Part shown: one piece after another, positions 13,066-48,374 of the stretch
Layout of the letters: every line of letters starts with the position of its first letter
Position numbering within the stretch: position 1 is the first letter of the stretch
Assembly (NCBI GenBank): GCA_040771805.1
Contig: JAXGZJ010000001.1
Span: 830,796-894,795, forward strand
Source: Methanofastidiosum sp.
GTDB lineage: Archaea > Methanobacteriota_B > Thermococci > Methanofastidiosales > Methanofastidiosaceae
DNA: 64,000 nucleotides
Reading direction: 5' to 3'
Program-made: the position numbers and the translations under genes
The notes under the pieces: model-generated
What the model saw: the letters and a program-made list of their open reading frames with translations, nothing else
Database searches by the model: none
Told to the model about the DNA's origin: nothing

Positions 13066-14196
13066 TCAATTTTCATTGTAGGGTCCTAAAAAAATTCTGA
13101 GATTTTTAAGTGATTTAATTTTATCTTCATTACCAATCTTAGCCTCTTTTATGGCGTTAGACAATATTTCTGCAGCATCATTCATACCTTTTCTGTTAAC
13201 TGGTCTTGGTACACCATCTTTACCGCCAAAAGCAAATGAATATTTTACAGGATCCTTCCAAGACAAGGCAGCTCCGTAAATAAGTTCAGATATTAATGCT
13301 AATCCCTTAATTGTAGATCGCCCCACACCCTTAAAAGCAAGAATGTCTTCAAAGTTATTTAAATCTGCTTCATAAATATCCCTTAAGATATTCCAGTTTA
13401 CTCTTTTTGGTAAAACAGCCACGTCAAAATTATGACTAGTATTTATAATATTTGATTCATCAATAAAAGACATGAGGGAGGTCTGATTAATATCAGTTAA
13501 CGATTCTATCAATCTTTGAACTCTACTAGGCCCTTCCTTAAGGATATCAGGTATTATATCTCTTGCTTCAGCACTATCTTTAGAAGTAAGATCTAATGTT
13601 TTTATTTTGATTATATCAGAAACAATACCCGTATGAGGCTCTTCAATGTAATTGCCAATTCTATTTGACCAATGATATCTTCTTGCGTAACCTCCCTCTA
13701 CGTTTAATCCTTGCTGCACTACGCTCCATCCGCCCTTGTCAGAAAAAATCGTAACATGATGATACAAATCAAATCCATCTTGGATTGCTGCACTATCAAT
13801 TTTTGCAGTGATTTTGCTTGTGTATTGCAATTCCTTTATTTTTTTGTCAGATAATCCAAATTGAGATCCGATCATTTCAATATCTAGGAGAGTATTTTTT
13901 GAATTTTTTCCTTTACCTCCTGCAAATCCAATCCCAAATTCTTCAGGATCAATAGAACTTTTTAAAACTCCAGTAAGGACTGTTGTAGTCCCAGAAGAAT
14001 GCCAGTCAAATGCTAGCACACATGACAGCGCTTGAAAAAAGAAAGGGTCTGATAACCTTTCCAATAATCCTTCTGTTCCGTATTCGTAAATAAGAATTTC
14101 TAGTATGGGCTTTGACAATTTTTTCATTCTTTTTAGGAGCCAGTAGGGCGCTTTACCACCATGTAAAGGAAGATCCATAGATCCAGAGTGTCGCAT
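13066..14196 (-). CDS. Conserved hypothetical protein with C-terminal helix-hairpin-helix (possibly DUF763)
   Basis: LPLHGGKAPYWL N-terminal motif; HhH-like LAFKGVGRSTIKGLALI near C-terminus. Confidence 0.4.
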   Translation of the reverse strand: MRHSGSMDLPLHGGKAPYWLLKRMKKLSKPILEILIYEYGTEGLLERLSDPFFFQALSCVLAFDWHSSGTTTVLTGVLKSSIDPEEFGIGFAGGKGKNSKNTLLDIEMIGSQFGLSDKKIKELQYTSKITAKIDSAAIQDGFDLYHHVTIFSDKGGWSVVQQGLNVEGGYARRYHWSNRIGNYIEEPHTGIVSDIIKIKTLDLTSKDSAEARDIIPDILKEGPSRVQRLIESLTDINQTSLMSFIDESNIINTSHNFDVAVLPKRVNWNILRDIYEADLNNFEDILAFKGVGRSTIKGLALISELIYGAALSWKDPVKYSFAFGGKDGVPRPVNRKGMNDAAEILSNAIKEAKIGNEDKIKSLKNLRIFLGPYNEN

Positions 14197-14291
14197 GTTT
14201 TGTAATTAATTTTTATTTAAATAAGGTTTTAGGTGATATTTGTATTTTTAATTTAAGAAAAAATAATTCAGTTTCTACTAAATAATTAATC

Positions 14292-15332
14292 TTAGATAGC
14301 AAGAACTTTGATTTCTCTTGAAATAACATCAATTGGATTCTCGAATTTAGAGAGTATTTTCTTGTTATTATCATGGTAGATGTCTAAATTTTTATCCTTT
14401 TCTATAAATCTGGTAATTTTTTCCGGATCCAATAGGTGAATTTTAAGCCCCTGTTCAATCATTTTCTTCGTAACTGCCAAAAGTTTCTCTGGATAAGTTG
14501 TAAGGGCGGGTGTATTTAAGGCAACTGCTTCCCTATTCATACTCCCGCCAGCACTTATAACAAGGTCAGAATATTTCATAAGACTTAAGGCATCAACAGA
14601 TTCTGAGGGGATAATAACATTATCATAGTCAAACACAGACTTCTGTTCTTCAAATCTTGGAAATACTACAAACTGGTAATCTTTTAGAAACTTTGTTTTT
14701 TCAAGTATTGCCTTAATTATCGTTTTGTCTTTATTGCCATTATAATAATTTGCTTTTACAGGTTCTGGCCTCATGACAATTGTCAATTTGTCTTCTGAAA
14801 GGCCTAATTGCGAAATAAAAGAATCATCGTATTTAAAATCACTAACATTTGCAATTTCACAAAATCCGTTAAAACGAGTTACTTGACTTTCATGCACACC
14901 ATATTTTGTTATTTCTTCAAGGGGTATAGCATCTGGTGCAATTACCTTTGAAGATAACGGAAGCATAAGCTTGTTTTGGGCAATTGCAGTTTCATTGTCA
15001 AGTATGCAAATTGAGGGGATCCCAAGGCCATAAGATACTCTAGCCCCTTCAACTGAATGTTTATATATTGTCAAATCAATATCTTCACTATTGATTATTT
15101 CAGAAAGCTCAAGAATTCTTTTTGAACTTTCTATAAGTTTTGATTTTTTACAGAATCCACCATGTTTACCTACTACAGTGTGTTTTATGCCATGGAGGTC
15201 CAATAAAGAGGATAATCCATCAAAATCCCTGGAAGTGACAAAAGTTTCATATCCTTTTGACTCTAAGCTCTTTATAATTCCCTTAAAAAAATTAACATGC
15301 GGGGTATTTGATATGTCTATCCATACTTTCAT
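14292..15332 (-). CDS. Conserved archaeal hypothetical protein (DUF354-like, glycosyltransferase/epimerase-like fold)
   Basis: MKVWIDISNTPHVNFF...TSRDFDGL...GKHGG N-terminal pattern. Confidence 0.45.
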   Translation of the reverse strand: MKVWIDISNTPHVNFFKGIIKSLESKGYETFVTSRDFDGLSSLLDLHGIKHTVVGKHGGFCKKSKLIESSKRILELSEIINSEDIDLTIYKHSVEGARVSYGLGIPSICILDNETAIAQNKLMLPLSSKVIAPDAIPLEEITKYGVHESQVTRFNGFCEIANVSDFKYDDSFISQLGLSEDKLTIVMRPEPVKANYYNGNKDKTIIKAILEKTKFLKDYQFVVFPRFEEQKSVFDYDNVIIPSESVDALSLMKYSDLVISAGGSMNREAVALNTPALTTYPEKLLAVTKKMIEQGLKIHLLDPEKITRFIEKDKNLDIYHDNNKKILSKFENPIDVISREIKVLAI

Positions 15333-22435: not shown

Positions 22436-23068
22436 TCAAGAAACTTTATTAGATTTTTTATCTTTGATCATTTTAAGCCTATACTTATTTTCTCGTTCTA
22501 GTTCTTCCAATCTAAAATCAATAAACTTCTTTTCTGATTCTAATTTAGGTATAATTTTTGATTCTAGTGCATTAACTCTTCTTTTTGTTATTTCAATATC
22601 CTTTAGAAGTTTTTTAAGAGTTGATTCTGCTTCAACAGCCTTTATTATATATTTGAGAACTTTCTCATATTCTTCTATAGTTTCATCAATCTTTGAAGAA
22701 GTGGATAAAATACTATATCCCCTCTCACTTATTCCTGTTTTAAATGATACATTAGATATTTGGGGAACTTTAACGCCCATGATATTTTTACTATCTAATT
22801 GAAATTCAGGATTACCTTTTTTTATTAATGCACATGAAGATACAGCTAAATTGCCCTCAAAGGCAATTGTCATCCCTAAGTATTTTTTTGCTACTTCGTA
22901 GCTCTCTTCAAGTGTTTCTTGAGCTTCTTTTGCATCTTTTACAAAGCCAAAAAGATTAAATATTAAACCATCCCGTTTTTTCTTTAAAATAACATAACCT
23001 GTTTTAGAAAGTTTAATTTTTTTTCGGAGCTTGATCAACTCTGACCTAGTAGGCTTTATTTTGGGCAT
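22436..23068 (-). CDS. atpD: A-type ATP synthase subunit D
   Basis: [33 protein letters not shown] matches the conserved subunit D N-terminus; last gene of atpHIKECFABD. Confidence 0.85.
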
Positions 23069-24437
23069 CTCTAAAACTCCCGATATATTTTTCAATTAAC
23101 TCATCACTTACTCTGAGCAATTTTTCTTCAGGGAGTTTAGATAATATCCTCCATCCAATATCTAAGGTAGTTTGTATCTCCCTATTTTCATTAGATTTTT
23201 GTGCAATGTAATTCTTTTCAAAATCATCGGCAAAATCTAAAAATAATTTGTCTGATTTTGAAAGGGATTCTTTACCTACAATTGAAACAATTCCTCTTAG
23301 ATCTTTCCCTTCTGCATATGCGGCATACAACTGATCCGACACAGACTTATGATCCTCTCTAGTCTTACCTTTTCCAATACCTTTACTCATCAATCTTGAG
23401 AGGGATGGGAGTACATCAATTGGAGGGTATATCCCTTTTCTTTGGAGATCTCTAGAAACAATAATTTGTCCTTCTGTAATATAGCCTGATAAATCCGGTA
23501 TGGGGTGGGTGATATCATCACCGGGCATTGTTAGAATTGGAACTTGAGTAACTGAGCCATTTTTACCCTCAATTTTGCCAGCCCTTTCATAAATTGAGGC
23601 AAGATCTGTATACATATAACCAGGATAACCCCTTCTTCCAGGAACTTCTTCTCTTGCAGATCCTATTTCTCTCAAAGCTTCGCAGTAATTTGTCATATCA
23701 GTCATTATTACTAACACGTGCATGTTATAATTAAACGCAAAAAATTCAGCTGTTGTCAATGCAATTCTAGGTACAATTATCCTTTCAATTGACGGATCTG
23801 AAGCAAGATTTAAAAAAACTATGCCTCTTTCTAATGCACCCGTTTTTTCAAAGTCACTGATAAAATACTTTGCTTCTTCTTCAGTTATTCCCATTGCAAC
23901 AAAAATAACTACAAAGCTCTCTGTACAATCCAAAACTGTAGCTTGTCTTGCTATTTGTAATGCAAGTTCATTATGAGGTAATCCTGATCCAGAAAATATT
24001 GGTAATTTTTGCCCTCTGATTAAAGAATTCATTCCATCTATGGCGGATACTCCAGTCTGAATGAATTCTTGTGGCGGAGATCTTTTATAAGGATTGATAG
24101 GGAGTCCATTGATATCTAATCTAGCTTCTGGTACTACTTTTGGGCCCCCATCTAAAGGATCCCCTGAGCCAGAAAACACTCTACCCAGCATGTCATAAGA
24201 AACAGGAAATTTTAACACATCACCATAAAATTTCACATATGCATTTTTATCTATGTTTCTAGTTCCTTCAAAAATTTGAACAACAACTTTATTTTCAGAT
24301 GTTTCTAACACTTGGCCTCTTTTAATACTCCCATCTGAAAGGGTGATTTTAACAAATTCTCCATATCCTATATTTTTAACACGTTCCAAGAAAATTAAAG
24401 GCCCTTTTACTGAAGTAATTGTCTTATATTCTTTCAA
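23046..24437 (-). CDS. atpB: A-type ATP synthase subunit B
   Basis: Non-catalytic nucleotide-binding subunit; [10 protein letters not shown]-loop-like region, typical length 463 aa. Confidence 0.9.
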
Positions 24438-24444
24438 AAAATCT

Positions 24445-26205
24445 TCACTCTCCTAGAAGTGCTTTAAACTCTTTAGACATTGTTTCATTTATCAAACCTA
24501 TTTTTCTCTCGAAATCTTTTCTATATCGCACTTTAGACAACTCTGCTCGAGATTCAAGTTTTAGTAATTTGTCAATTTCAATTCCACTTTTAATTGCATT
24601 GTTGCCTAATCGAGAAAATCTAATAATTGCGTTTAAAAGTGAAAATTGCCTCTTTAAAGAATGAAATTCATCGACTTCATGATAAGAATCTTGTTGCAAA
24701 AATATTTCTCGTAACATTCTAGCGACATCTAATATGAACTGTTGGTCCGAGGGGAGTGCATCTGCACCTACAAGCTGCACGATTTCCTGTAGTTCAGCTT
24801 CTTTTTGTAATATTTTCATTGCTTCAGTTCTAGTTCTATCCCAATCAATAGAGATTTTACTCTCAAACCACTCTTTTAGTGAGTCATAGTAAAGTGAATA
24901 AGATTCAAGCCAGTTTATTGAGGGGAAATGTCTTTTTTGAGAAAGATTTGAATCTAGGGCCCAAAATGTTTTAGTAATTCTAAGTGTATTTTGAACTACC
25001 GGTTCGGAGAAATCTCCTCCTGGAGGGGAAACTGCGCCTATGATAGTTACCGAACCTATCTTCCCCCCTAATGTGACAACTATACCGGCTCTCTCATAAA
25101 AACTAGATAGCCTAGAAGATAGATATGCAGGATACCCTTCTTCACCTGGCATCTCCTCCAATCTTGAAGAAATCTCTCTCATGGCTTCTGCCCATCTAGA
25201 TGTTGAGTCTGCCATAAGTGCAACATCATACCCCATATCTCGATAGTATTCGGCAATTGTAATTCCTGTATAGATTGAAGCTTCTCTTGCTGCTACTGGC
25301 ATATTTGAAGTATTAGCTATCAGAACAGTTCTATCCATAAGGGGGCTGCCTGTTACAGGGTCTACTAGTTTAGGGAACTCTGTAAGAACATCAATCATTT
25401 CGTTTCCCCTTTCCCCACACCCAATATAAACAACTACTTTAGTATCGCTCCATTTAGCTAGTTGCTGTTGTATTACGGTCTTACCGCTTCCAAATGGCCC
25501 TGGAATAGCTGCAGTCCCGCCCTTTGCTAGGGGAAACAAAACATCCATAATTCTCTTGCCTGTAACTAAAGGAGCATTTGGGATCATTTTATCTTTGAAG
25601 GGTCTTGGAACTTTAACAGGCCACCTTTGATACATTTTAATAACTGTGCCATTATCCAACCTACACAATATATCTTCAGCAGTATATTTTCCTTGTTCAA
25701 CGATGTCAATAATTTCTCCTTGAATATTTGGAGGTGACATTATGAAGTGTTTTGTATGTTCATTCTCATTTACATACCCAATTGATTCGCCCAAATTTAT
25801 TCTATTTCCTTTTTTCTTTAACGGAAAGAATTCCCATTTCTTTTCTCGATCAATTCCCGGTACTTCAGCTCCTCTTTTAATAAATTCTCCCATTTGTTCA
25901 GAAAGTTTAGGCAATGGCCTCTGAACTCCGTCATATATTGAACCAAGTAATCCGGGTCCTAACTCTACAGATAAAGGCATACCTGTTGTAATTACTTCAT
26001 CCCCAGGTTTTAATAATGAAGTATCCTCATATACCTGAATAATTGTCTTATCATGATCAATTTCTATTACCTCACCAAATAATCCTTTGTTACCTACTCG
26101 GACTAATTCGTTTATTTTAGCATCAACATTTGTTGCTACGACTACCGGTCCGGAGACTCTATACACTGTACCTTTACTTCCCAAATTAATTACCCCAGAG
26201 GTCAA
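24445..26205 (-). CDS. atpA: A-type ATP synthase catalytic subunit A
   Basis: Walker A GPFGSGKT; 586 aa, no intein insertion. Confidence 0.9.
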
Positions 26206-26488
26206 CTCCGATTATATGCTTAATTTTATCTCTTAAAATATCGCTCAGTTTTAATCCTAAAACAATTACTGCCGGTTTTACAGATGTGTCGACTCTTAAT
26301 TTAGCTTTATTTGAAAGAGTGTTGTAATATTCAGGCTGGATTATTATTATCCCCACATCTTTATCTTTAAACATATCGTTAAGATAATCTTCAAATTGTC
26401 TACCATCTATAATCCTTTTATTTTTTCTTATGCCCAATAGTTTGAATCCTGTCACAAAATCTTCATCCCCAATTACTCCAAATTCCAT
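26186..26488 (-). CDS. atpF: A-type ATP synthase subunit F
   Basis: ~100-aa protein in the conserved position between atpC and atpA. Confidence 0.75.
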   Translation of the reverse strand: MEFGVIGDEDFVTGFKLLGIRKNKRIIDGRQFEDYLNDMFKDKDVGIIIIQPEYYNTLSNKAKLRVDTSVKPAVIVLGLKLSDILRDKIKHIIGVDLWGN

Positions 26489-27525
26489 CAGATCACCAAA
26501 CTATTTTCGATTATTTTTTTTTCTAGATTAGAAGCTTTACCTCTAGATATTTTTCTTAGATTATCAACTTCTATTTTTTTGGAAATGATATAATGGAGAA
26601 CAGGCATTATGTTAAAGGAATCGCCAATAAAGTATTCTTTTGCACATTTCATCAGGTATTTCTCTAAATATTCCTCCAAATAAAATAAAGTAGTTTCATG
26701 TAAATGCTTTTCTATTATTGATCCATATGGAGTCATTTTAACTTTCTTTAAAAAATCCTCTTCATTTGATCTTAAGAGTGATGATAATTCTTTAACATTA
26801 AAAAATAATCCTCCCTCTATTGTATTTTTCTTCTCTTCTTCAATGCCAAATCCATATCTTTTCATCCTTAAGATATTTTTTATGTTTGTTATATCAATTT
26901 CAGTTTTTATAAACTTAATAAAAATAGATTTTTTTTCATTCCTAAATTTTTCAAGAATATTTTTGTAATATTCCTTGAAGAGTTCCGATTCCAAATCAGC
27001 TATTTCTTTATTTTCATCAATAAATTCAAATCTTTCTATTTTTTTTAATTTCTTGATTACCTCCCCATAAGTAGATGTTTTAACTAGAGATTGAATAAAA
27101 TTAAATGGCATCTCCCCTATTGGAATAAGTGTTTTTTCAATCTCGTATTCAGAGGAGTTAGAATACTTTCCCCTTAAAACAGCTATAATGTTATGGATAT
27201 CCCATTTACTAAATATTGCAAAAGCATATTTTGAAGCTGCTTTACCCCCCATTTTAATTAGCTTATTGTAAGTATTTCCCAAATTATAATTAATCGAGTA
27301 TTCTATTAGTTCTACGCCTTTGTAATTCCCTGATAAAGATTCAATCTCATATTTATAATTTCCTTCCCCTAAAAATCTAGCTATCTGAGAAATTTCCATA
27401 TTTAGGAGTTTGAAATAGGTATTCTCTTTATATAATTTGCTTTGCATAGCCCTTACTCTAGTATTAAGATAACTGTAGTTTGTTTCTTCAAAATAGGGAC
27501 TAGAGATGGATACACTTGAACCCAT
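26488..27525 (-). CDS. atpC: A-type ATP synthase subunit C
   Basis: ~345-aa helical protein in the conserved position between atpE and atpF. Confidence 0.75.
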   Translation of the reverse strand: MGSSVSISSPYFEETNYSYLNTRVRAMQSKLYKENTYFKLLNMEISQIARFLGEGNYKYEIESLSGNYKGVELIEYSINYNLGNTYNKLIKMGGKAASKYAFAIFSKWDIHNIIAVLRGKYSNSSEYEIEKTLIPIGEMPFNFIQSLVKTSTYGEVIKKLKKIERFEFIDENKEIADLESELFKEYYKNILEKFRNEKKSIFIKFIKTEIDITNIKNILRMKRYGFGIEEEKKNTIEGGLFFNVKELSSLLRSNEEDFLKKVKMTPYGSIIEKHLHETTLFYLEEYLEKYLMKCAKEYFIGDSFNIMPVLHYIISKKIEVDNLRKISRGKASNLEKKIIENSLVI

Positions 27526-28078
27526 ATTCTACCTCGCTAAAGGAAATATCCCTGATTTCTTTCAAATTGTTTTCAAACACATGGCGTAAAATCGTTTCAA
27601 AGGTGAAATCTTCTTTAATTTTTCCTGTAGCATCTTCAGCCAAAATTCCTCCTACGGCATTAACATTTCCACGGTACCTTTTCCCTATCTGTTCCCGAAT
27701 ATAATTTTCATCTTTTTTATTTGAAAAAATATATTCAAGATCCATCGAAAGAAGTAATTTTTTTAAGATAGCCTCTTTTTGACTTTGATCAATGTTTTCG
27801 AGTCTATTTTTAGCCTCAAGAAAGATTTCTCCGAGTACGTCGTATTCCATTTTTAATCTCTTTCTTTTAATTTCAAGATTAGTTTTGGAAGCTTCAGTTT
27901 TAGCAAGTAAAGAAATTTTTTCTTTTAGAGTTTCCTGTTTTTTTAGTTTTAGATTATTTATGGCAATATCAATCTCTTTTAATTTTATTGCTTTTTTTTC
28001 TTCTACTTCATTATCATAGTCTCTAGCTATTTTTTTGGCATCTTCAATTATGTTTTTTGTTATCGTACTTACGTTCAT
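27500..28078 (-). CDS. atpE: A-type ATP synthase subunit E
   Basis: ~190-aa coiled-coil-rich protein at the conserved operon position. Confidence 0.75.
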   Translation of the reverse strand: MNVSTITKNIIEDAKKIARDYDNEVEEKKAIKLKEIDIAINNLKLKKQETLKEKISLLAKTEASKTNLEIKRKRLKMEYDVLGEIFLEAKNRLENIDQSQKEAILKKLLLSMDLEYIFSNKKDENYIREQIGKRYRGNVNAVGGILAEDATGKIKEDFTFETILRHVFENNLKEIRDISFSEVEYGFKCIHL

Positions 28079-28087
28079 TTGATCATC

Positions 28088-28330
28088 CTAAAGAAGTTGC
28101 GGTAACACCACAAAAAGAAGGACTAATGATACAGTAAGTCCGAAGATAACTATTGTTTCTGGAATTACAGTAAGAACTAATCCCTTACTAAAAAGCTCTT
28201 CTTTTTCAGTAATCGCTCCTACTGCAGCAGAACCTATGTGTTTTTCTGCCCATGCTGCTGCAAATCCTGTTGCTATAACTGAAATGACAGAGCTTAATAC
28301 AACTATTGCAATTATTAATTGTTCCATCAA
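28088..28330 (-). CDS. atpK: A-type ATP synthase subunit K (proteolipid/c subunit)
   Basis: 80-aa two-helix hairpin with the conserved ion-binding Glu (VIPETIVIFGL). Confidence 0.85.
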   Translation of the reverse strand: MMEQLIIAIVVLSSVISVIATGFAAAWAEKHIGSAAVGAITEKEELFSKGLVLTVIPETIVIFGLTVSLVLLFVVLPQLL

Positions 28331-28344
28331 ATCACCTCATCTTA

Positions 28345-29979
28345 TTATGTTCCAAATGGTTTATATTTTACGCCTCCACCTTCATAGAATTTTGTGAAAA
28401 ATTCAACATAATGCAATCTCAAGGCATGCAGGAAACTAGCAATGATTCCAAGTAATATATTCCCCATATGACCTCCAATCAATACAATATAACCTAATAA
28501 TATAAAAACACCACCTTTGGGAAAAATTACTTTTGTAACAATACTATTTATTACAATAGCTATCCCTACTGAAGAAAGACCAATAGCCATAAGTCTTAGA
28601 TAAGACAAAATATTACTCATTAAACTAAATATATGTATTAATCCTATAAATCCTTCTCCGATGATTAGTAGAATAATCGAAGTTAAAAAAAGACTAATTC
28701 CGATGTAGAAAAATGGTCCAGACATATAAATATTAATTGTAAGGAAAATTATTGAAAATATTAGCATAATCCATGAACCTTTTTCTAGTATGGCTTTTTT
28801 CAAGTTATGATTGCGATAGTGATTAATAAATCCAAATGATAGGCCTAAAAGAATGTGGAAAATACCAATGGCCATTGAAAGAATCATTATCGGCATAAAA
28901 TCAGTAATTCTGTTTAAAACAGGCATTTGAAGGCCAAATATTTTATCAATTCCTAGAAAATGGAAGATACCAAATCCAAAAAATTCTCCATAAATAATCC
29001 CAAATATGATTGTATATAAGCTTGAATATTCCAAAATACCAAGGATCATCCCCCAACCCTCAGTTTTAAATTTAGTTTTCATAAATAAAGATGTAAAAAA
29101 TATTGTCAATCCGTACCCAATATCCCCTAACATTATTCCATAAAATAATGGGAAAGTAATAAAAATTGCAAACGTAGGATCAATCTCTTTAGTTTTAGGG
29201 TATTCAAACAATTCAAGTAGTAATTCGAATGGCTTTATTGGAATCGGGTGCTTAAATTCAATAGGCACATCTTCATTATGACTAAATTTGACTTTATCAA
29301 TTGTGACTCTATTATTAAATTTTTTCTTGAGGATACTTTTGATATCTTGGTATTTGTTTTCAGGTATCCAGCCTTCAATAAGGAAAGTATTCTTAGTAGT
29401 TGTAAATCTTAATGGGGCTTCCATTTTTTCTATTTCATTTGATAAAAAATCTTCATATTGTAATAGATGAATTGATTCTTGCTCAATTATAGCATCCATC
29501 TGATCTTTTAATTCAGTCCTATATGCTTCAAGCTGCGATTTGGAAGAAATTAGATTATTAACCGAAGAAATTATTTTTTTTTCGATGCCTATGCCTTTTA
29601 ACTCTCCAATTGATTCAATATTTTCAATCTCTTTAAGCACTGAGTCTATTTTACCAATTTTTTCTGAATATCCTTTAATAATATTTTCAGTTTCAAAAAC
29701 TTCTTTTTCAAGATTTCTTGAAACTTCACTTTTAGTATAAGTTGCCTTAATATTCCCTAATCCATTATCAAACTTATGTAACAAAGACCTAATTGAAATT
29801 AATAATTCTGAAAAAATTGCAACTTCACCTAAAGATTTTCCAACTTCAAATGTCTCATCGTGCTCTTTAAAGTCTATAATATGAATTATTTTTAAAGAAT
29901 GAAGGATATCAATAGTTTCCTTCATATTATCTTTAGTTCCGACTAATACGATTTTAGTCATTCTTACGTTAGAGTTCAT
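28345..29979 (-). CDS. atpI: A-type ATP synthase subunit I (a-subunit homologue)
   Basis: Hydrophilic N-terminal half and multi-TM C-terminal half; 544 aa. Confidence 0.85.
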   Translation of the reverse strand: MNSNVRMTKIVLVGTKDNMKETIDILHSLKIIHIIDFKEHDETFEVGKSLGEVAIFSELLISIRSLLHKFDNGLGNIKATYTKSEVSRNLEKEVFETENIIKGYSEKIGKIDSVLKEIENIESIGELKGIGIEKKIISSVNNLISSKSQLEAYRTELKDQMDAIIEQESIHLLQYEDFLSNEIEKMEAPLRFTTTKNTFLIEGWIPENKYQDIKSILKKKFNNRVTIDKVKFSHNEDVPIEFKHPIPIKPFELLLELFEYPKTKEIDPTFAIFITFPLFYGIMLGDIGYGLTIFFTSLFMKTKFKTEGWGMILGILEYSSLYTIIFGIIYGEFFGFGIFHFLGIDKIFGLQMPVLNRITDFMPIMILSMAIGIFHILLGLSFGFINHYRNHNLKKAILEKGSWIMLIFSIIFLTINIYMSGPFFYIGISLFLTSIILLIIGEGFIGLIHIFSLMSNILSYLRLMAIGLSSVGIAIVINSIVTKVIFPKGGVFILLGYIVLIGGHMGNILLGIIASFLHALRLHYVEFFTKFYEGGGVKYKPFGT

Positions 29980-34096: not shown

Positions 34097-36208
34097 TTAC
34101 TTAAGGAGTAAGAAAAATAGGAGTAATACTATCAAAAGTAAAAATCCTATGAGAATTCCTCCATAGAGAAGTATGTTGTTAAGAGAATTAATTCCGTTTG
34201 AAGATTCAATTAGCTGATTGCATTTGGCGATATAATCCTCAGATGCTGCAACTTTTTTCAAATCGCCCAAATTATTGAATTCTGCACTTGCTTTTTGAAA
34301 ATAAGATTTTGCATTATGAAATTCTCCAGAAGAAAAGTATTTCTTCCCTATTTCAAAATATTCTAAGGCCTTTTTATGATTTTCAATTTTTAGCATATTG
34401 TTCTGGATCAAGGAGATTTTTCGGCTATCCCCTAATTTTTCGTATATATCTATAGCATTGTTATAGGCTGAATAGGCCTTATCGTAATTTTCCTCTGATA
34501 AATATTTATTAGCTTCGTCTAGATAATTCTGGGCACTAACATAAATAGTAGCTTTTCCAATCATCTCTTCGGCTTTTAACGCCCTGTCAAAATCTTTTTT
34601 ATTCATTGATGCTTGCTTTGATTCCTCAAAATATAGAATAGATTTTTGGTATTCCCCCATATCAAAATAGTATTGGCCAATTTCATACGAAGATCCGGTA
34701 TTTAAAAATAGTTCACATTTTTTGATGTAATCATCAGCTTCTAACATCCTATTAGTATTCCTATCTTTTTTATACTCTTCTCTTGCCACTTTAAAGTATA
34801 CAAGGGCGTTCCTATAGTTCTGCTTATTGAAGGAATCCATAGCTTGGGTGAAATATATGTCCCCTTTATTTGCACCCATCATATTCTCATAACAAGAAAT
34901 GACATTACTATAACTAACTAAAACTAAATCAAGCTTTCCATTATGATCCATATCTTTAATGGTAACATATTCAGTCATATGATTTTCATTGGATTGCCAT
35001 AGTAGATGGCCTAATCCATCTAAAAGGAATATTTCCCCATATGCTTTGTTAGACTTGTATGTTGTAGAAGAGCCTGCAACAATTTCACCATATCCATCTT
35101 CATTAAGATCGGATGAATGAACATTAGATATGGCCTTGCCTAAGTTACTTTCCCATATCCTGGCGCCAGTTTTATCCAGAACATATACCTTTTCACCTGC
35201 TGCAATAACTTCAAGATTTTCATCTCCTATAATATTTGCGACAATTAGATCAGAGCCCTGCTTTATCGGATATGACCACAAAAGACTAAGAGTGCCCCCT
35301 TCCTTCGTATGGAAACAATAAACATACTTTTCAGATAATGCAAGAATCTCTATTTTTTCATCACCCACTTGGTATTCGTTCCCATTATCAAGATTAGTTG
35401 CTATAATCTTTTTAATAGGCATGCCAGTACCGGTATTATAAGAATGAGTCTTATCCCATTTGTCTGTTGAAGTGTTATAATCGTAAACAGAAATATTTCC
35501 TTCACCTGAGATAGTTTCTCCTCCTGTGATTATCTCTTTTTCAATATCAGAATCTAGATTTGCAGAAGTGATATAATTTAAGGGTTTTGATGGTTTTGCA
35601 ATTGTAGAGAAAATATAATCATATCCATCATAACGAATCATGCTCGCGTTGACACCAGCTAAAATGGCGACCTCTTTACCATCTCCAAATATGTCTGCAG
35701 ATTTTATTTCGCTAACAGGCACTGATTTGAAATATTTTTTACCCATACCTTGTTCAGAAAGTATGTAAAAATGTGACTCAGTTAATAATAAGATATCTTT
35801 CTGTCCATTTCCATTAAAATCGATTCCATATGCATCTTTTGGATAAAATTTTGCCTTATCTACATTTGGAGGATTTAATAGGGAATCCCTTATTGAATCC
35901 ATTGTATCATCAGCATTGCCTATCTCTTTTTTCCAAAGTATTTCACCATTATAGTTTAAAAGGTAGACATATCCATTTTCATATGATTCTCCTCTTTTAA
36001 AGCCAGTTGTAACTAAAAGTTTGCCAACGGAGTCATGTGAATAGTCTATTAGCCGCATTGACATTACCATGTCTCCTTTTGGCTTGTTGGAAAACTTCAA
36101 AGACATTTCATTTGCAGAAACAATTGACAGAAATAACAACAGAATAATGAATATAGGAACGATTTTTGATTTTTGAATATTTATAAATCTCATTTTAACA
36201 ATATTCAT
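34097..36208 (-). CDS. Secreted/surface protein: signal peptide, beta-propeller (FG-GAP/VCBS-like repeats), TPR repeats, C-terminal TM anchor
   Basis: N-terminal hydrophobic signal, repeated D-x-[DN]-x-DG-like motifs (FGDGKEV, DLNEDGYGEI, DMDHNGKLD), TPR-like Y/A-rich repeats, C-terminal GGILIGFLLLIVLLLFFLLLK. Confidence 0.5.
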   Translation of the reverse strand: MNIVKMRFINIQKSKIVPIFIILLLFLSIVSANEMSLKFSNKPKGDMVMSMRLIDYSHDSVGKLLVTTGFKRGESYENGYVYLLNYNGEILWKKEIGNADDTMDSIRDSLLNPPNVDKAKFYPKDAYGIDFNGNGQKDILLLTESHFYILSEQGMGKKYFKSVPVSEIKSADIFGDGKEVAILAGVNASMIRYDGYDYIFSTIAKPSKPLNYITSANLDSDIEKEIITGGETISGEGNISVYDYNTSTDKWDKTHSYNTGTGMPIKKIIATNLDNGNEYQVGDEKIEILALSEKYVYCFHTKEGGTLSLLWSYPIKQGSDLIVANIIGDENLEVIAAGEKVYVLDKTGARIWESNLGKAISNVHSSDLNEDGYGEIVAGSSTTYKSNKAYGEIFLLDGLGHLLWQSNENHMTEYVTIKDMDHNGKLDLVLVSYSNVISCYENMMGANKGDIYFTQAMDSFNKQNYRNALVYFKVAREEYKKDRNTNRMLEADDYIKKCELFLNTGSSYEIGQYYFDMGEYQKSILYFEESKQASMNKKDFDRALKAEEMIGKATIYVSAQNYLDEANKYLSEENYDKAYSAYNNAIDIYEKLGDSRKISLIQNNMLKIENHKKALEYFEIGKKYFSSGEFHNAKSYFQKASAEFNNLGDLKKVAASEDYIAKCNQLIESSNGINSLNNILLYGGILIGFLLLIVLLLFFLLLK

Positions 36209-36377
36209 ATCTCAATGCCCTCTATTTTTTATATAATGATTAAATTAAGTGCCAATATTATTAATTATTATTGCTATACTAATATATAAAGTTATCGTTA
36301 TAAAGAATAAACAATGTAAGAATAAAAAATAGCTATTGTTAAACAATAATAAAAAAAGAATGTCTTAATATATAGTC

Positions 36378-37928
36378 TTAAAAAGGTACTTTCAGATTAT
36401 ACTTCTTTCTATTTTCTATTTTCTTTTTGCTCCTGTTCTTCTTAATCTTTGAAAGTTTTTTTACTATTTCTAAATCAAGAGGGATCTTATCTTCCTTGCC
36501 TATCTCTATGTAACCTTCATTAGCCGCAGCTTCGAATACCTTTTTGCCTATTTCAGTTCGCACTATAACAGTATTCCATCCTTCTGGAGCCCCAATTGAT
36601 CCAATTGAAATGTCAGAAAGTTCGGAAGTAAAGTCAGGGCAAATTGAACAACTCTCTTGCTCATATTCCCTTACTACATCTATAGGTATTTTTTGGATAT
36701 CCCCAGAAACTGAATAAATAGTGTAATTGCCTGCACCTATATCAATTTTGTACGTATCTTCGGCTCTTATTTCCCCTAACTCTTCCATCATTTTTATCAT
36801 TGCATTGTATCTAAAATTATGGGTACAAAATAATCCAATTCTAAGAGAAATTTTATCAACTACACTTCTAAGGGATAGGGGGTATATTTCAAGTTTCCTA
36901 ATTGCTTGGTGGACACATGGGAGTCCAACTATAGCTATGTTTTTAAGATAGTTAGAAGTTGCTGCATCTTTAAGTAAATTTAATGTTGGGCAAAGATTGT
37001 ATGTTGTCCCAGTTGTTTGGAGTAGTTCATCATAGTTTGTTACTATGGCAGATCTTGCAAGCCAGTATTTTTCTTTATCCTTGCTGCCTGTTAAAATACC
37101 ATCAATTATTCTTGAATCAAGGCAGTAATTCATAAGTGCAGTTGTAGCCCCGCCACCTTGTGCGCGTTTTAATATTTCCTGATTAACAGCTCGAACTGTA
37201 TATACTGAAATATATTTTCCAAGATATTCGTCTGTAGATGTGCTTTCTCCTTTAAAGATAGTTTCATTTATGTAATCTAGAGGCATATAGCTTCTTGGAC
37301 ACTGGAATCTACATTCTCCACATTTTACACATATTTCGTCTCTTAAGACAGGTTTACCTTCTATGTCAGATAATGCAAGTGTAGGACATACAGCTGCGCA
37401 AAGCCCACATGAGATACATAAAGCCCTTTGTGTTATGTATCTAACATTCACTTCTGAATTTTCCTCAATGTTAGTAAATGCTTGAAGGTACAACTCATCT
37501 TTTTTCAAGAAAGCATCAAAGAATTTTTCAATGATCTCAGGGCTTGGAGGGCATCCTGGTATTGCATAGTCTACTTTTATTATTTCACTAACTGGTAAAA
37601 ATGCATCAGTCTCCGGCATAGGCATTTGATTCCCTGCAGAATGTACTAATATTCCTGTAGTTACGGCACATGCCCCTAGGGCTGCAACTTTCTTTGATTT
37701 CTGTCTAATCTCTGTTACAAGCTTCATGTGTCCCTTTTCAATAGTTCCTACTGCTCCTTCAAATACCGCCAAATCTAATTCCTCTGGGATTTCTCTAGCA
37801 TCCATTACCAAAGGATAATATTTTACATCATAATCATTAAGAAATGAAATGATATTGCCCGTGTCCAAATGAGATAAAAGGCATCCGGTGCACGAAGCTA
37901 ACTGAAACACCCCAATTTTTGGTTTCAT
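36378..37928 (-). CDS. frhGB: Fused [NiFe]-hydrogenase small subunit (FrhG-like) and F420-binding beta subunit (FrhB-like)
   Basis: N-terminal small-subunit motif ASCTGC...PGCPP, two ferredoxin motifs (CISCGLCAAVCP, CVKCGECRFQCP), then FrhB-like QGGGATTALM...GLPCVHQA...CSICPDF. Confidence 0.7.
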   Translation of the reverse strand: MKPKIGVFQLASCTGCLLSHLDTGNIISFLNDYDVKYYPLVMDAREIPEELDLAVFEGAVGTIEKGHMKLVTEIRQKSKKVAALGACAVTTGILVHSAGNQMPMPETDAFLPVSEIIKVDYAIPGCPPSPEIIEKFFDAFLKKDELYLQAFTNIEENSEVNVRYITQRALCISCGLCAAVCPTLALSDIEGKPVLRDEICVKCGECRFQCPRSYMPLDYINETIFKGESTSTDEYLGKYISVYTVRAVNQEILKRAQGGGATTALMNYCLDSRIIDGILTGSKDKEKYWLARSAIVTNYDELLQTTGTTYNLCPTLNLLKDAATSNYLKNIAIVGLPCVHQAIRKLEIYPLSLRSVVDKISLRIGLFCTHNFRYNAMIKMMEELGEIRAEDTYKIDIGAGNYTIYSVSGDIQKIPIDVVREYEQESCSICPDFTSELSDISIGSIGAPEGWNTVIVRTEIGKKVFEAAANEGYIEIGKEDKIPLDLEIVKKLSKIKKNRSKKKIENRKKYNLKVPF

Positions 37929-38401
37929 TGTGAATCCTCCATAAAAGAAATAACAATTTTTTGGACTTTATTAATGGCATCCATAACGTTTTGGCTCATT
38001 TTAAGTTTCATATTGTCGGGATTGACATCTCCTTGAACTAATATTAGCTTAACATTAGAAGAAAAATTATTTATTTCGTGAGAAATAGCCATGCCATGTG
38101 ATGATTTAATGAAGTCTTCATAAGCTATATTTTTTCCATCCAATACCAATACATCTCCAAGCTTTCCTTTAAAATCCCCACAGTCAATTATGTATAGATT
38201 CTTAATTTTATGTTTCGAGTTATTAATAAGATTTAAAAAAGGAGATATTCCAGAGCCACAATCAATTACTGCAAGATTATTGTATTTAGTCTCAATTTTT
38301 TCATCTTTTAGCTTTCTAATAAATTCTGGCCCAAACCCATCATCACCAAAAAGGGGATTACCACACCCCAAGATAAGATTCTCTTTTGTTAGGTACTTCA
38401 T
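37925..38401 (-). CDS. frhD: Hydrogenase maturation endopeptidase (FrhD/HycI-like)
   Basis: ILGCGNPLFGDDGFG motif; internal Met start at 38401 chosen over the track start at 38467. Confidence 0.65.
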   Translation of the reverse strand: MKYLTKENLILGCGNPLFGDDGFGPEFIRKLKDEKIETKYNNLAVIDCGSGISPFLNLINNSKHKIKNLYIIDCGDFKGKLGDVLVLDGKNIAYEDFIKSSHGMAISHEINNFSSNVKLILVQGDVNPDNMKLKMSQNVMDAINKVQKIVISFMEDSQ

Positions 38402-39633
38402 TATAAGTACCTCCTTTCGATAATCTTGCCTTCTATATCTTTGACAACTATACAATGAGTTGCACAATCAAGGCAAGGATCAAAAGATCTCATTATGACT
38501 TCAGCATACTCTTGTGGTGAACCTTCTATAGTCTTTCCTATTGTTGGTATATTCCATGTTGTTGGCGATATTATTTTATAGTCTTTCATAATCCCATTCT
38601 GATCTGTTTTTGCCATATGAATTAACGTACCTCTTGGTGCTTCATAGACGCCTATGCCTTCCCCTTCCTTAACATTTATGTGTTCAGGTTTTGTCTTGCC
38701 ATTAACATCTAGCTGATCAAGTAATTCCTCAGCCCTATACACCATGACTAACATCTCCCTAGCCCTAGCAACATTGATATATAATGCAGAGTCCCCGGAA
38801 AATCTTTTGAATTTAATGAATCTTGCTCTTGGGCCAGTTTCAACTGTTTCTCCATAGTATAGTGGTATCATTGTATTGGTAGTTCTACCTTCTTCGTCTT
38901 TTCCATAAAATCTAGATGGAATTACCTCTCTGATTGCCTCAATATTAATTTCTTTTCTATCGCCATAGGTCATATGGGTGGCGAGAATACTTGAGTTAGA
39001 GGTTCCTATATTATTTGGAAGATTTTCGAGTTTCTTCTCTATTGATTCTATAATCAAATCTTTTTGCAAATGTGCATTTTTCTCATATTTTCTAACAAGC
39101 CTATACAAGCTTGCAGCCGCTCTTTTGCTAATGTTAGTACGAAATCCCCCAACACAATAATTAGAAGGATGTATCGCTTCTCCACCTACAATATCTTTCA
39201 TTTTTTGTCCAATTCTTCGTAATTCTTGGATTCTTTCAATTGATTCGTTTTTTATTTTTTCATCATCAACTATATCGTTAAGAATAAGAAACTGATGAAG
39301 CGCATGGTCTTGCATTTTACTTGCTAAACCTAAAATCTCTCTCAATATCAAGGCGTCTTCAGGTATTTCCAGATCAAAAGCACCCTCAATCGCCTGACAT
39401 GACGCTTCTGCATGGGATATTGGACATAATCCACATATTCTCATTGAAGCTCTAGGGGTAAATTCATAAGTTCTTCCCAAGGTCAATGACTCGAAACTTC
39501 GTACCATTGTTGTCGATATGTAATATGCCCTCTCAACTATCCCTTCGTCATCTACATGAAGAACTAATTTCGCATGTCCCTCGTGCCTAGTTGTTGGATT
39601 AAGGATTACAGTTCGTTCCCCTGTGCTTTCCAT
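38401..39633 (-). CDS. frhA: [NiFe]-hydrogenase large subunit (group 3, FrhA-like)
   Basis: N-terminal RICGLCPISH and C-terminal DPCLDCATH Ni-Fe ligand motifs. Confidence 0.8.
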   Translation of the reverse strand: MESTGERTVILNPTTRHEGHAKLVLHVDDEGIVERAYYISTTMVRSFESLTLGRTYEFTPRASMRICGLCPISHAEASCQAIEGAFDLEIPEDALILREILGLASKMQDHALHQFLILNDIVDDEKIKNESIERIQELRRIGQKMKDIVGGEAIHPSNYCVGGFRTNISKRAAASLYRLVRKYEKNAHLQKDLIIESIEKKLENLPNNIGTSNSSILATHMTYGDRKEINIEAIREVIPSRFYGKDEEGRTTNTMIPLYYGETVETGPRARFIKFKRFSGDSALYINVARAREMLVMVYRAEELLDQLDVNGKTKPEHINVKEGEGIGVYEAPRGTLIHMAKTDQNGIMKDYKIISPTTWNIPTIGKTIEGSPQEYAEVIMRSFDPCLDCATHCIVVKDIEGKIIERRYL

Positions 39634-39738
39634 ACTATTCCTCCATAAAATATATTCAATAATATATCCATTTAAACATTGCGGTAATAAAAAATAAAAT
39701 TTCTGTAAGATATGATAAAAATAGTAATAGTTGGAATG

Positions 39739-45912: not shown

Positions 45913-46473
45913 TTAAGAATTTTTAAAAGAATTCTCTTCAAATTCCTTATGAATTTGCTGCATCCATTCAGGTATAGATATTTTGTCCTCAGGGTAAAAG
46001 TTTCTAACATACGGTTTGATATCAACTACAGGACTACCATCGACCGCATCCAGCCCCGTAACCTCTAAAACATTCCCTCTTATACCATGCAAACGGACAA
46101 CAGTCATAAGTATAGGATTTGGTCTTGCAGGGCTACATGTGGCAAATATACCTACCTTTGAAAAACATTCTCTTCCCATAGGATGTACTTTTGTCAAAGA
46201 TCGACTTTGCTCTGGAACTTTATGGGCCCAGTATAAAATTATAAGATGGGAATATTTTTCAACCCCTTCAAGGATATCTATGATATCATTATCAATAATA
46301 ATTTCTGATATTTCCTCATTGATTTGACGAATTTGTTTCATATTGGCTTTGTTCTGTTCCTTCATCTTTATTCCCTCATTTCCGGCAACAAGGGAGGGTT
46401 CATTATTGTTATTTCTTACAATACCAATCGGCCTTACTATCAAATTTCCTGCATTTTTATTATCTTTAATCAT
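45913..46473 (-). CDS. TsaA/YaeB (TrmO-like) family protein
   Basis: VRPIGIVRN N-terminus and RPNPILMTVV...VTGLDAVDGSPVVDIKPY core motifs. Confidence 0.6.
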   Translation of the reverse strand: MIKDNKNAGNLIVRPIGIVRNNNNEPSLVAGNEGIKMKEQNKANMKQIRQINEEISEIIIDNDIIDILEGVEKYSHLIILYWAHKVPEQSRSLTKVHPMGRECFSKVGIFATCSPARPNPILMTVVRLHGIRGNVLEVTGLDAVDGSPVVDIKPYVRNFYPEDKISIPEWMQQIHKEFEENSFKNS

Positions 46474-46513: not shown

Positions 46514-47611
46514 TTATCTTATTCTTATTCCGTCCCCAGTTAATTTATTATATCTGCTCTTTGAACAAGGATAGCAATAATTTCCTCCGTTGCTTTTAGA
46601 TATCCTTGTAGCCATTACGTTTTCCTTACAACAATCACATAAAATGCTATCATATATTGGGGCATATTCTGGGATATCTGCCTTCACTTTTTTTATTGAA
46701 AAAAGGCTATCAAAGTCCATTTTAAGCATGTTAAACGAGACCTCTTTTCCATATTGTTTAAATAAAGAATAATCTTCTTCGTTTCCAGCCCTATCTCTTA
46801 CTACTTTATTAAATAATTCAAAATACTCAGGAAAGTTTTTTTCAAGACCATTTCTGTAATCAGGATTAACAGAAACTCTTATCCCATTGCCATCTCTTCT
46901 AGATAGTGTTACGGCATTTTTTCCAAAATCCCGATAAATAAGGGCATTATTTCCAAATGTACATCCAGTAACATATTGGACGCCATCTGACATGCAATTA
47001 TTTGCTTCAACAATAGCGATTACTTCTTCCATCCCATCTGAAATTTCTTTGATTTCATTCATCAGATAAGCGCTTGCCCTAACTCCAAGGGATAATCCCG
47101 GGCAATAGTGGCCATGAATTGTTCCTGCCGTAATGAGTAGTTTTTCTAAATCATTCTCAGCAATGTACCTAGTTATTTCTGATCTTGGATTGTTTTTTAG
47201 GTAGCTTAGATTTTCAGCTTCTTGACCCTTTTCATCAAGAAAAGCAGAGTACGGTTTTATATCAATAACAGGTGTTCCATCGATTGCGTCAAGTCCCTTT
47301 ACTAGAAGCTCGTTACCTTTTCTTTCCAATAGCTCTACCGTAGTTAGGCCTATATTTGTCGGCCTTCGTGGGCTTCTAGAAGCAAAAACACCTTTTACTT
47401 CGCCCCCATACCTAGGGCCAATAAGTTCAAAATCTTTAGAAAGATGAAAAACAAACATTACCTGGAGATATCTGCTCTCCTCTATCTTATATAGTCCATC
47501 TTCAAAATCTTTGTCTACTATGATTGTACTCTCTGTCTTTCTTAATATATTTGGGTCTACTTGCTCCCTAAAATTATTTTTTACTGTTCCTATCTTTTTA
47601 ATATGCTCCAT
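46514..47611 (-). CDS. Fusion protein: N-terminal TsaA/YaeB-like domain, FmdE-like domain, C-terminal zinc ribbon
   Basis: RRPTNIGLTTV...KGLDAIDGTPVIDIKPY (TsaA-like); HGHYCPGLSLGVRA (FmdE-like); CDCC...CYPC C-terminal cluster; start uncertain (track start 47680). Confidence 0.6.
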   Translation of the reverse strand: MEHIKKIGTVKNNFREQVDPNILRKTESTIIVDKDFEDGLYKIEESRYLQVMFVFHLSKDFELIGPRYGGEVKGVFASRSPRRPTNIGLTTVELLERKGNELLVKGLDAIDGTPVIDIKPYSAFLDEKGQEAENLSYLKNNPRSEITRYIAENDLEKLLITAGTIHGHYCPGLSLGVRASAYLMNEIKEISDGMEEVIAIVEANNCMSDGVQYVTGCTFGNNALIYRDFGKNAVTLSRRDGNGIRVSVNPDYRNGLEKNFPEYFELFNKVVRDRAGNEEDYSLFKQYGKEVSFNMLKMDFDSLFSIKKVKADIPEYAPIYDSILCDCCKENVMATRISKSNGGNYCYPCSKSRYNKLTGDGIRIR

Positions 47612-48374
47612 TATTTTTCCTCCCCACTGGAATAACAAACGGGTAGCCATCGTGCTCCTTAATATAGACATCCACACCATATACTTCTTTAATTAATTTT
47701 GGAGTAATTATATCGTGGCCTCCAACTGAATCAATCATTCCCCCTTTTAAAAAGATGAATTTGTCTGAAAATCTTAGGGCGGAATTAATATCATGCATTG
47801 TCATTATAACTGATACATCATGTCCATCCACAATTTCTGATAAGAGGTACAGTATTTCCTGCTGATTTTTAAGATCTAGACTTGATGTAGGTTCATCCAA
47901 TAATAGTATTTTTGGCTCTTGAACTATTGCTCTGGCTATTCCGACTTTTTGTAATTCTCCACCACTTAACTCATCTAAATACCTTAAAGAGAGATCTTCC
48001 ATGTTTAATTTTTTCATGGCAGAGTTAACTAATGAAATATCCTTGTTAGATACATCCCACTTTATATGGGGTTTCCTACCAAGTAAGATGGCATCAAATA
48101 CAGTTATCCTTACAGTTTCGTTTCTTTGTGGAACATAACCTAACTTCTTTGCTATTTCTATTCTTTTAATATTCATAATATCTTGATTCTCTACCAGTAT
48201 ACTTCCACCTTGTGGCCTTAGAATTCTATTTATGCATTTGAGAAGTGTAGTTTTGCCCACGCCATTTGGGCCTAATATACTTAAAATTTCATTCGACTCT
48301 AAATTAAAGTCTATTTGATTGAATATTTCTTTATTTTTATAACTAAATTTTAAATTAGATATTTCAAGCATCAT
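47598..48374 (-). CDS. ABC transporter ATP-binding protein (FepC/BtuD-type), second system
   Basis: Walker A GPNGVGKTT, signature LSGGELQ, Walker B LLLDEPTS. Confidence 0.85.
   Translation of the reverse strand: MMLEISNLKFSYKNKEIFNQIDFNLESNEILSILGPNGVGKTTLLKCINRILRPQGGSILVENQDIMNIKRIEIAKKLGYVPQRNETVRITVFDAILLGRKPHIKWDVSNKDISLVNSAMKKLNMEDLSLRYLDELSGGELQKVGIARAIVQEPKILLLDEPTSSLDLKNQQEILYLLSEIVDGHDVSVIMTMHDINSALRFSDKFIFLKGGMIDSVGGHDIITPKLIKEVYGVDVYIKEHDGYPFVIPVGRKNNGAY

Follow-up and report, generated by a model that had tools for sequence, protein, structure and literature searches.

An FrhG-FrhB gene fusion in a probable group 3a F420-reducing hydrogenase of Methanofastidiosum

The F420-reducing [NiFe] hydrogenases (Frh, group 3a) are known from the solved enzymes of Methanothermobacter (4OMF, 3ZFS, 4CI0), Methanosarcina barkeri (6QGR) and Methanothermococcus (9R51), and their canonical operon runs frhADGB, with frhG directly 5' of frhB (PMC12297640). 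A domain of the FrhB type is also found joined to a ferredoxin domain in single-chain proteins, namely the N-terminal half of Fsr (7NP8, 7NPA) and the F420-reducing subunits of the CO dehydrogenase and the formylmethanofuran dehydrogenase of Ca. Ethanoperedens (8RIU_B and 8RJA_E, respectively). Here we describe a 64,000-nucleotide stretch from a genome of the uncultured methanogen Ca. Methanofastidiosum, of the WSA2/Arc I lineage (contig JAXGZJ010000001.1, positions 830,796 to 894,795; the window) that carries, at 36378-39633, three overlapping minus-strand genes, frhA, frhD and frhGB, the last of which joins FrhG and FrhB in a single chain of 516 residues. On sequence comparison, we consider it likely that the locus encodes a group 3a F420-reducing hydrogenase made of only two polypeptides, FrhA and FrhGB, and matured by FrhD. 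With the fusion, the locus is a variant of a known enzyme that differs in architecture and is specific to its lineage; it is Frh-like in all the features tested except the number of polypeptides.

The FrhG-FrhB chain and its partners

An earlier reading of this DNA from its letters alone (the sequence-only reading) had given the gene order as large subunit, maturation protease and then one 516-residue protein in which a small-subunit domain, two [4Fe-4S] ferredoxin motifs and an FrhB-like domain are combined. The open reading frames (ORFs) lie exactly where it placed them, and alignments to Pfam, NCBIfam and the Protein Data Bank (PDB) agree with the domain identities it proposed. Pfam locates Oxidored_q6 at residues 13-136 of FrhGB, Fer4 motifs at about residues 150-213, FrhB_FdhB_N (PF04422) at 242-320 and FrhB_FdhB_C (PF04432) at 329-480. 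The NCBIfam model of FrhG (TIGR03294) is matched by residues 3-217 over its positions 2-222 of 228, and the FrhB model by residues 234-515 over positions 2-282 of 283. The solved structures divide the chain in the same place: residues 2-222 align to Methanothermobacter FrhG (3zfs_B, residues 46-271 of 275), residues 236-516 align to Methanothermococcus FrhB (9r51_B, residues 4-282 of 282; 233 bits), and the alignment to M. barkeri FrhB begins at residue 233. The long N-terminal extension of the deposited Methanothermobacter FrhG chain, which accounts for the alignment starting at its residue 46, is absent from FrhGB. The C-terminal half therefore aligns over the full length of FrhB in one continuous frame, which was the first check to which the fusion had to be put, and frhG and frhB, which in the canonical enzyme are two of three separate subunit genes beside frhA, are here one ORF.

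Only some 10-13 residues between the FrhG and FrhB parts are left unaligned, and the junction (YMPLDYINETIFKGESTSTDEY) reads as the C-terminal tail of FrhG running almost straight into the N-terminus of FrhB. Among 14 fused proteins it is the least conserved stretch of the chain and varies in length, with the frame kept throughout. The predicted tryptic peptide that spans it is GESTSTDEYLGK (residues 226-237).

The FrhG part has the expected organisation of a proximal-cluster core followed by a two-cluster ferredoxin domain, with all 12 cysteines in place. The two ferredoxin motifs, CISCGLCAAVCP at residue 171 and CVKCGECRFQCP at residue 200, provide the ligands C171/174/177/181 and C200/203/206/210 of the predicted medial and distal [4Fe-4S] clusters. 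These motifs, which the sequence-only reading had listed as a component in their own right, are present, but they do not add a module: FrhG normally carries them in its C-terminal ferredoxin domain (PMC10229431). Compared with the PDB on its own, this domain finds its matches at the C-terminal end of FrhG (9r51_C, residues 184-234; 3zfs_B, residues 214-271) and in methanogen polyferredoxins, and no specific link emerged to the ferredoxin domains with which Fsr and 8riu_B begin. By Pfam, by NF006807 (315.4 against a cut-off of 269), by sequence identity (39.5% over 281 aa to FrhB of M. thermolithotrophicus) and by predicted fold, the C-terminal part is an FrhB subunit; C338, C368, C427 and C430 are its candidate cluster ligands and are invariant. 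All 16 cluster cysteines of the chain are invariant in the 14 fused proteins, at identities down to 33% (alignment A1).

An AlphaFold2 model of FrhGB, built on the 14-sequence alignment, has a mean pLDDT of 78.9 and a pTM of 0.83. We compared it with solved structures using Foldseek, with TM-scores normalised by target length (TMt). The FrhB part superposes on 9r51_B with a TMt of 0.94 and an rmsd of 1.9 Å, and the N-terminal half on FrhG (4omf_G) with a TMt of 0.81. The ferredoxin and FrhB parts jointly superpose on 8riu_B (356 columns, rmsd 2.9 Å), on 8rja_E (364 columns, 3.5 Å) and on Fsr (7npa, 7np8; 368 columns, 3.0 Å). As in these single-chain proteins, the FrhB-type domain is preceded on its own chain by a two-cluster ferredoxin domain, and sequence alignments to them run unbroken from about residue 165 to about residue 505. 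The joining of FrhG to FrhB thus arrives at a connectivity of which there are other natural examples and, judging from the model, should leave the electron relay undisturbed. Unlike FrhGB, Fsr, 8RIU_B and 8RJA_E have no hydrogenase small-subunit core and work with other catalytic partners, and by sequence the ferredoxin domain of FrhGB is of the FrhG type, not of their N-terminal type. We considered whether the locus could itself belong to the Fsr/8RIU_B-type family and rejected this on the Oxidored_q6 core at residues 13-136 and the coupling of the gene to frhA and frhD.

FrhA scores 494.1 bits against the NCBIfam frhA equivalog (TIGR03295), for which the cut-off is 392.5. Its best PDB matches are all FrhA: that of Methanothermococcus first (9r51_A, 371 bits over residues 9-408), then those of Methanothermobacter and Methanosarcina. 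Both NiFe ligand motifs of the family are present, the N-terminal RxCGxCxxxH as RICGLCPISH (L1, residue 65) and the C-terminal DPCxxCxxH as DPCLDCATH (L2, residue 385). Past L2 there is a 17-residue C-terminal tail, which from its sequence should be of the kind clipped off by a maturation protease. The gene for such an endopeptidase, frhD, sits between frhA and frhGB. FrhD matches Pfam HycI (E = 4.4e-12) and scores 75.4 against the superfamily model TIGR00072 (cut-off 47.45). A mechanical ORF call gives frhD a TTG start and 180 aa (37925-38467); the tblastn register in 11 genomes, together with the sequence, fixes the start at the ATG at 38401, giving 158 aa.

The fusion of FrhG and FrhB in one gene is a conserved trait of a lineage and no artefact. 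FrhGB is about 96% identical in a Ca. Methanofastidiosum methylothiophilum genome and 86-89% identical in ten further Methanofastidiosum-type genomes. The order thrC-frhA-frhD-frhGB is kept in 11 of the 11 Methanofastidiosum genomes found, and the full-length 516-residue frame in 10 of them; in the remaining one (L011) the contig ends at residue 306. Further away, frhA-frhD-frhGB recurs in three distant genomes with 48-51% identity, one of the NM3 archaeon and two labelled Methanomicrobia, and on a metagenome contig whose homologue is 49% identical (loci L012, from NM3, L013, L015 and L018). A protein database adds 13 clusters in which the fused protein is full-length (512-543 aa, 33-88% identity), and several of these are named as Theionarchaea; 94 proteins belong to the cluster nearest to FrhGB, and the contigs that encode them reach 1.58 Mb. 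The loci that carry the fusion range from about 32% to 57% GC. The sequence-only reading, which had proposed a real fusion that tethers the electron-output module to the small subunit and had asked whether orthologues would expose it as an artefact, is thus borne out, since the orthologues keep the fusion.

The fused layout is nevertheless a minority form: in a search of 1.84 billion representative proteins, only about four representatives, plus fragments, show it among the best 150 matches, where there are many unfused FrhB proteins (about 280-300 aa) and many proteins with ferredoxin and FrhB domains in a single chain (340-380 aa). Relatives of 470-530 aa were considered as hidden small-subunit fusions and rejected, as their N-terminal extension is cysteine-free and winged-helix-like. 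These proteins (P0054-P0059, P0066, P0083, P0088, P0014, P0016 and P0018) have an N-terminal domain of about 130-200 aa followed by a ferredoxin-FrhB module. The domain has no cysteines, has an IclR helix-turn-helix match in one protein, and is not a hydrogenase subunit.

Origin of the fusion

In the canonical frhADGB order frhG directly precedes frhB, and the simplest origin of frhGB would therefore be loss of the frhG stop codon and a short spacer in the ancestor of the Methanofastidiosum/Theionarchaea/NM3 group. In a neighbour-joining tree of the FrhB domain (200 bootstraps), the fused proteins of this group form a monophyletic clade with 100% bootstrap (fused clade A), which stands near canonical FrhB and near a second, divergent fused set. 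We suggest that a single late fusion is favoured by the distribution, since fused clade A was found in only one group of related lineages; separate frhG and frhB genes are found across the classical methanogen orders.

Of course, the history could have run in the opposite direction. The fused form would then be the older one, created when a small-subunit core joined a ferredoxin-FrhB module, and canonical FrhG and FrhB would have arisen by a later split, which seems to us an unlikely course of events. Equally unlikely is its corollary that the split fell between the ferredoxin domain and FrhB and that Methanofastidiosum and its relatives keep the intermediate. The attraction of the idea is that, outside Frh, a ferredoxin domain precedes the FrhB-type domain on the same chain in nearly all relatives (their matches start at about residue 165 of the query) and that the way in which FrhG gained its ferredoxin domain was left open in PMC10229431; if true, an ancestral fusion would explain why the ferredoxin domain of FrhG sits on FrhB as it does in Fsr. 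The existence of the second, deeply divergent fused set and the fact that the fused clade is not nested inside canonical FrhB in the tree also point this way. However, the deep branching order of the tree has a bootstrap of no more than about 30%, which makes the tree uninformative here, and the restricted distribution of fused clade A speaks against an ancestral fusion. The ferredoxin domain taken alone is, moreover, related to canonical FrhG and polyferredoxins and not to the N-terminal domains of Fsr or 8riu_B. We therefore retain loss of the frhG stop codon as the simplest account.

The divergent fused set (P0011-P0013, P0051, P0052 and P0106; 508-544 aa) shares the three-part single chain with FrhGB at 30-38% identity. 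Unlike FrhGB, its members have insertions in the N-terminal domain and no GNQMPMPE motif, and P0011 at least is the end gene of an Mbh/Mrp-type operon, not of an frhA-frhD operon. P0011 (540 aa, 38% identical to FrhGB) is encoded at L016:6001-7623, and the first 4 bases of its gene are shared with the gene before it. The upstream genes (L016:1-6004) belong to a membrane-bound hydrogenase operon of the Mbh/Mrp type that holds its own small subunit, 30-kDa subunit, large subunit and ferredoxin subunit. P0011 could act as an F420-linked module, for input or for output, of a group 4 complex.

Electron acceptor and role of the enzyme

Judged by sequence, the electron acceptor of the FrhA-FrhGB enzyme is most likely F420. 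The sequence-only reading had taken the fusion as a possible sign of a distinct group 3 subtype or of a different electron carrier. Neither suggestion is supported: FrhA lies above the frhA cut-off and has Methanothermococcus FrhA as its best solved relative, and the FrhB part is closest, in sequence and in fold, to the F420-reducing FrhB of solved structures. These two results together lead us to place the enzyme, with some confidence, in group 3a rather than in a new subtype. The locus resembles canonical FrhABG with FrhD in its large-subunit family, protease, small-subunit core and ferredoxin domain, and also in its FrhB fold (TM 0.94), its gene order (A-D-G-B) and its full set of cluster cysteines. 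It departs from the canonical enzyme in having G and B as one 516-residue chain with almost no added linker, in the G, B and D parts lying under their equivalog cut-offs and in forming a clade separate from canonical FrhB at 100% bootstrap.

An electron path can be proposed by homology to the solved Frh structures. The enzyme is predicted to be cytoplasmic. H2 would be split at the NiFe centre in FrhA, and the electrons would pass from the proximal cluster (C13, C16, C87, C126) to the two ferredoxin-type clusters of the FrhG part and from there to the [4Fe-4S] cluster of the FrhB part, to FAD and finally to F420. FrhD would mature FrhA by clipping its C-terminal tail. The fusion would hold FrhG and FrhB at a 1:1 ratio and keep the output module docked, and no change of chemistry would be needed.

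Several observations weigh against this assignment. The FrhG part scores 198.7 against its equivalog TIGR03294 (cut-off 245.5), the FrhB part 267.7 against TIGR03289 (cut-off 331.5) and FrhD 85.6 against the frhD equivalog TIGR00130 (cut-off 135); all three are under the cut-off, and we read this as divergence of the lineage. The order of the fused clade, the divergent fused set and canonical FrhB is supported by a bootstrap of about 30% at most. Genes of F420 biosynthesis and F420-dependent genes were looked for in the 64-kb window and none was found; its gene content comprises cobalamin synthesis, corrinoid/iron ABC transporters, an A-type ATP synthase, DNA ligase and TBP, among others.

One might argue that an Frh-like enzyme passes its electrons to an acceptor other than free F420, be it a different cofactor or a partner complex (CO dehydrogenase or Hdr, for example), and that the fusion marks a distinct subtype, a proposal to which we give little credence. 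The low equivalog scores of the FrhB and FrhG parts would fit it, as would the use of FrhB modules in many complexes (8riu, a CO dehydrogenase; 8rja, a formylmethanofuran dehydrogenase; Fsr; Fdh-Hdr), the numbering of cooS beside frhB in two mangrove Methanofastidiosales genomes and the absence from the organism of the F420-dependent steps of CO2 reduction (PMC6019823). Yet those partner complexes all still bind F420 through the FrhB module. The FrhB part has authentic FrhB as its nearest relative (233 bits, 39% identity, TMt 0.94), passes the NF006807 cut-off, and groups with authentic FrhB and the other fused forms, although this grouping is weakly supported. Across the compared loci no conserved partner gene for another complex adjoins the operon, whose neighbours in the window are thrC upstream and an FG-GAP/TPR protein downstream. 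Finally, CofG and CofH, markers of F420 synthesis, are reported by a survey in Theionarchaea, which share the fusion (PMC11459464). An F420-reducing enzyme of group 3a thus remains our preferred reading. Methanofastidiosales genomes are also listed with an F420-type fdhB and an frhB-like gene (PMC12297640).

In the mangrove Methanofastidiosales, cooS is numbered directly beside the fused frhB (Mef1_1095/1096 and Mef2_1166/1167; PMC12297640 Table S8), whereas the neighbour of frhGB in the window is the FG-GAP/TPR protein; the solved F420-reducing CO dehydrogenase 8RIU may be compared with the former arrangement. The FG-GAP/TPR protein is encoded directly downstream of the operon (34097-36208, minus strand); it has 703 aa, with hydrophobic segments at both termini and FG-GAP and TPR repeats, and is syntenic in the 10 Methanofastidiosum loci that reach past frhGB.

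Methanofastidiosum reduces methyl groups with H2, and the CO2-reduction pathway is absent from it (PMC6019823, PMC7302380). Because that pathway is missing, we think that F420H2 is most likely used in biosynthesis or in protective reactions and not in the central pathway. An analogy is offered by Methanosphaera, in which NADPH is supplied through F420:NADP oxidoreductase, and the same route is a candidate use of F420H2 here.

The remaining alternative, that a lost stop codon or a frameshift in sequencing or assembly has joined separate frhG and frhB genes into a single ORF, has the prior expectation from characterised methanogens, where the two genes are separate, in its favour and practically no chance of being right, since the fusion is repeated in many independent assemblies: the frame is unbroken in 15 genome loci from different studies, the 13 clusters (512-543 aa, 33-88% identity) include one with 94 members on many contigs, the host loci span 32% to 57% GC, and the junction varies in sequence and length and stays in frame.

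Public records call FrhGB 'F420-reducing hydrogenase, subunit beta' or 'beta subunit C-terminal domain'. A full-text literature search, whose coverage did not include the original genome description, found no description of an FrhG-FrhB fusion. A candidate preprint was rejected as a report of the fusion because its subject is a bacterial enzyme without FrhB; a Methanofastidiosum frh gene is mentioned in one preprint. For two Methanofastidiosales genomes a published table lists frhA, frhD and frhB consecutively with no row for frhG (PMC12297640 Table S8), which is what a hidden fusion would produce. Counts of subunits by KEGG or TIGRFAM will miss FrhG, or call the 516-residue protein FrhB, in Methanofastidiosales, Theionarchaea and NM3, and knowledge of the fusion corrects such missing-FrhG calls in pathway reconstructions. 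A two-polypeptide Frh is a naturally tethered form of an enzyme that has been studied in depth; it holds ferredoxin domain and FrhB in fixed contact and could ease heterologous expression. It also adds one data point on how FrhB modules, and the ferredoxin domains that go with them, have been shuffled in the evolution of Frh, Fsr, Fpo and related complexes. The known chemistry is unchanged and the importance of the finding is modest; a fusion of adjacent subunits will be no great surprise to the specialist.

Operon signals and the rest of the window

The three genes form a compact, translationally coupled operon (Table 1). The start codon of frhD lies in the stop codon of frhA (TAATG) and that of frhGB in the stop codon of frhD (ATGA), and GGAGG is found 5' of each of the three genes. 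From inspection of the sequence, the region between thrC and frhA holds a putative archaeal promoter and a putative ribosome-binding site: seven bases ahead of the frhA ATG is a GGAGG (39644-39640), and further upstream an AT-rich TTTAAAT (39676-39670); the window as a whole is AT-rich (about 32-35% GC). A run of seven T residues past the frhGB stop codon is a plausible oligo-T terminator of the operon.

Table 1. Coordinates of the frhA-frhD-frhGB operon, of the parts of FrhGB and of the flanking signals in the window
Feature	Position	Strand	Remarks
frhA, [NiFe] large subunit, probable group 3a	38401..39633	-	410 aa; TIGR03295, PDB match, motifs
frhD, maturation endopeptidase	37925..38401	-	158 aa; Pfam HycI, TIGR00072
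frhGB, FrhG-FrhB fusion	36378..37928	-	516 aa, one unbroken frame
Small-subunit core, frhGB aa 1-150	37479..37928	-	Proximal [4Fe-4S] ligands C13, C16, C87, C126
FrhG-type ferredoxin domain, frhGB aa 160-215	37284..37451	-	Two CxxCxxCxxxCP motifs
Junction, frhGB aa 216-235	37224..37283	-	Alignment A1 columns ~255-275
FrhB domain, frhGB aa 236-516	36381..37223	-	Predicted FAD, one [4Fe-4S], F420 binding
thrC-frhA intergenic region, 105 bp	39634..39738	-	Putative archaeal promoter and ribosome-binding site, by sequence inspection
Seven-T run	36351..36357	-	21 bases past the frhGB stop codon

Elsewhere in the window, a long same-strand block at 41608-63996 (minus strand) carries a gene cluster for cobalamin synthesis (cbiD, E, T, L, F, G, H and J), along with a CbiMQO cobalt transporter and two sets of ABC transporters of the corrinoid/iron type. 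This block fits a methanogen that depends on corrinoid methyltransferases. Between the transporter sets lie two adjacent TrmO/TsaA-like genes (45913-46473 and 46514-47680). An A-type (archaeal V-type) ATP synthase operon with subunits I, E, C, A, B and D occupies 22436-29979 (minus strand). The gene at 12198-12701 (minus strand) encodes a 167-residue protein in which a ferredoxin:thioredoxin reductase catalytic-subunit domain is followed by a C-terminal rubredoxin-like domain. Conserved DUF1638, DUF763 and DUF354 genes are found at 7914-8834 and 13066-15332 (both minus strand), and a DUF6282 gene at 5415-6323.

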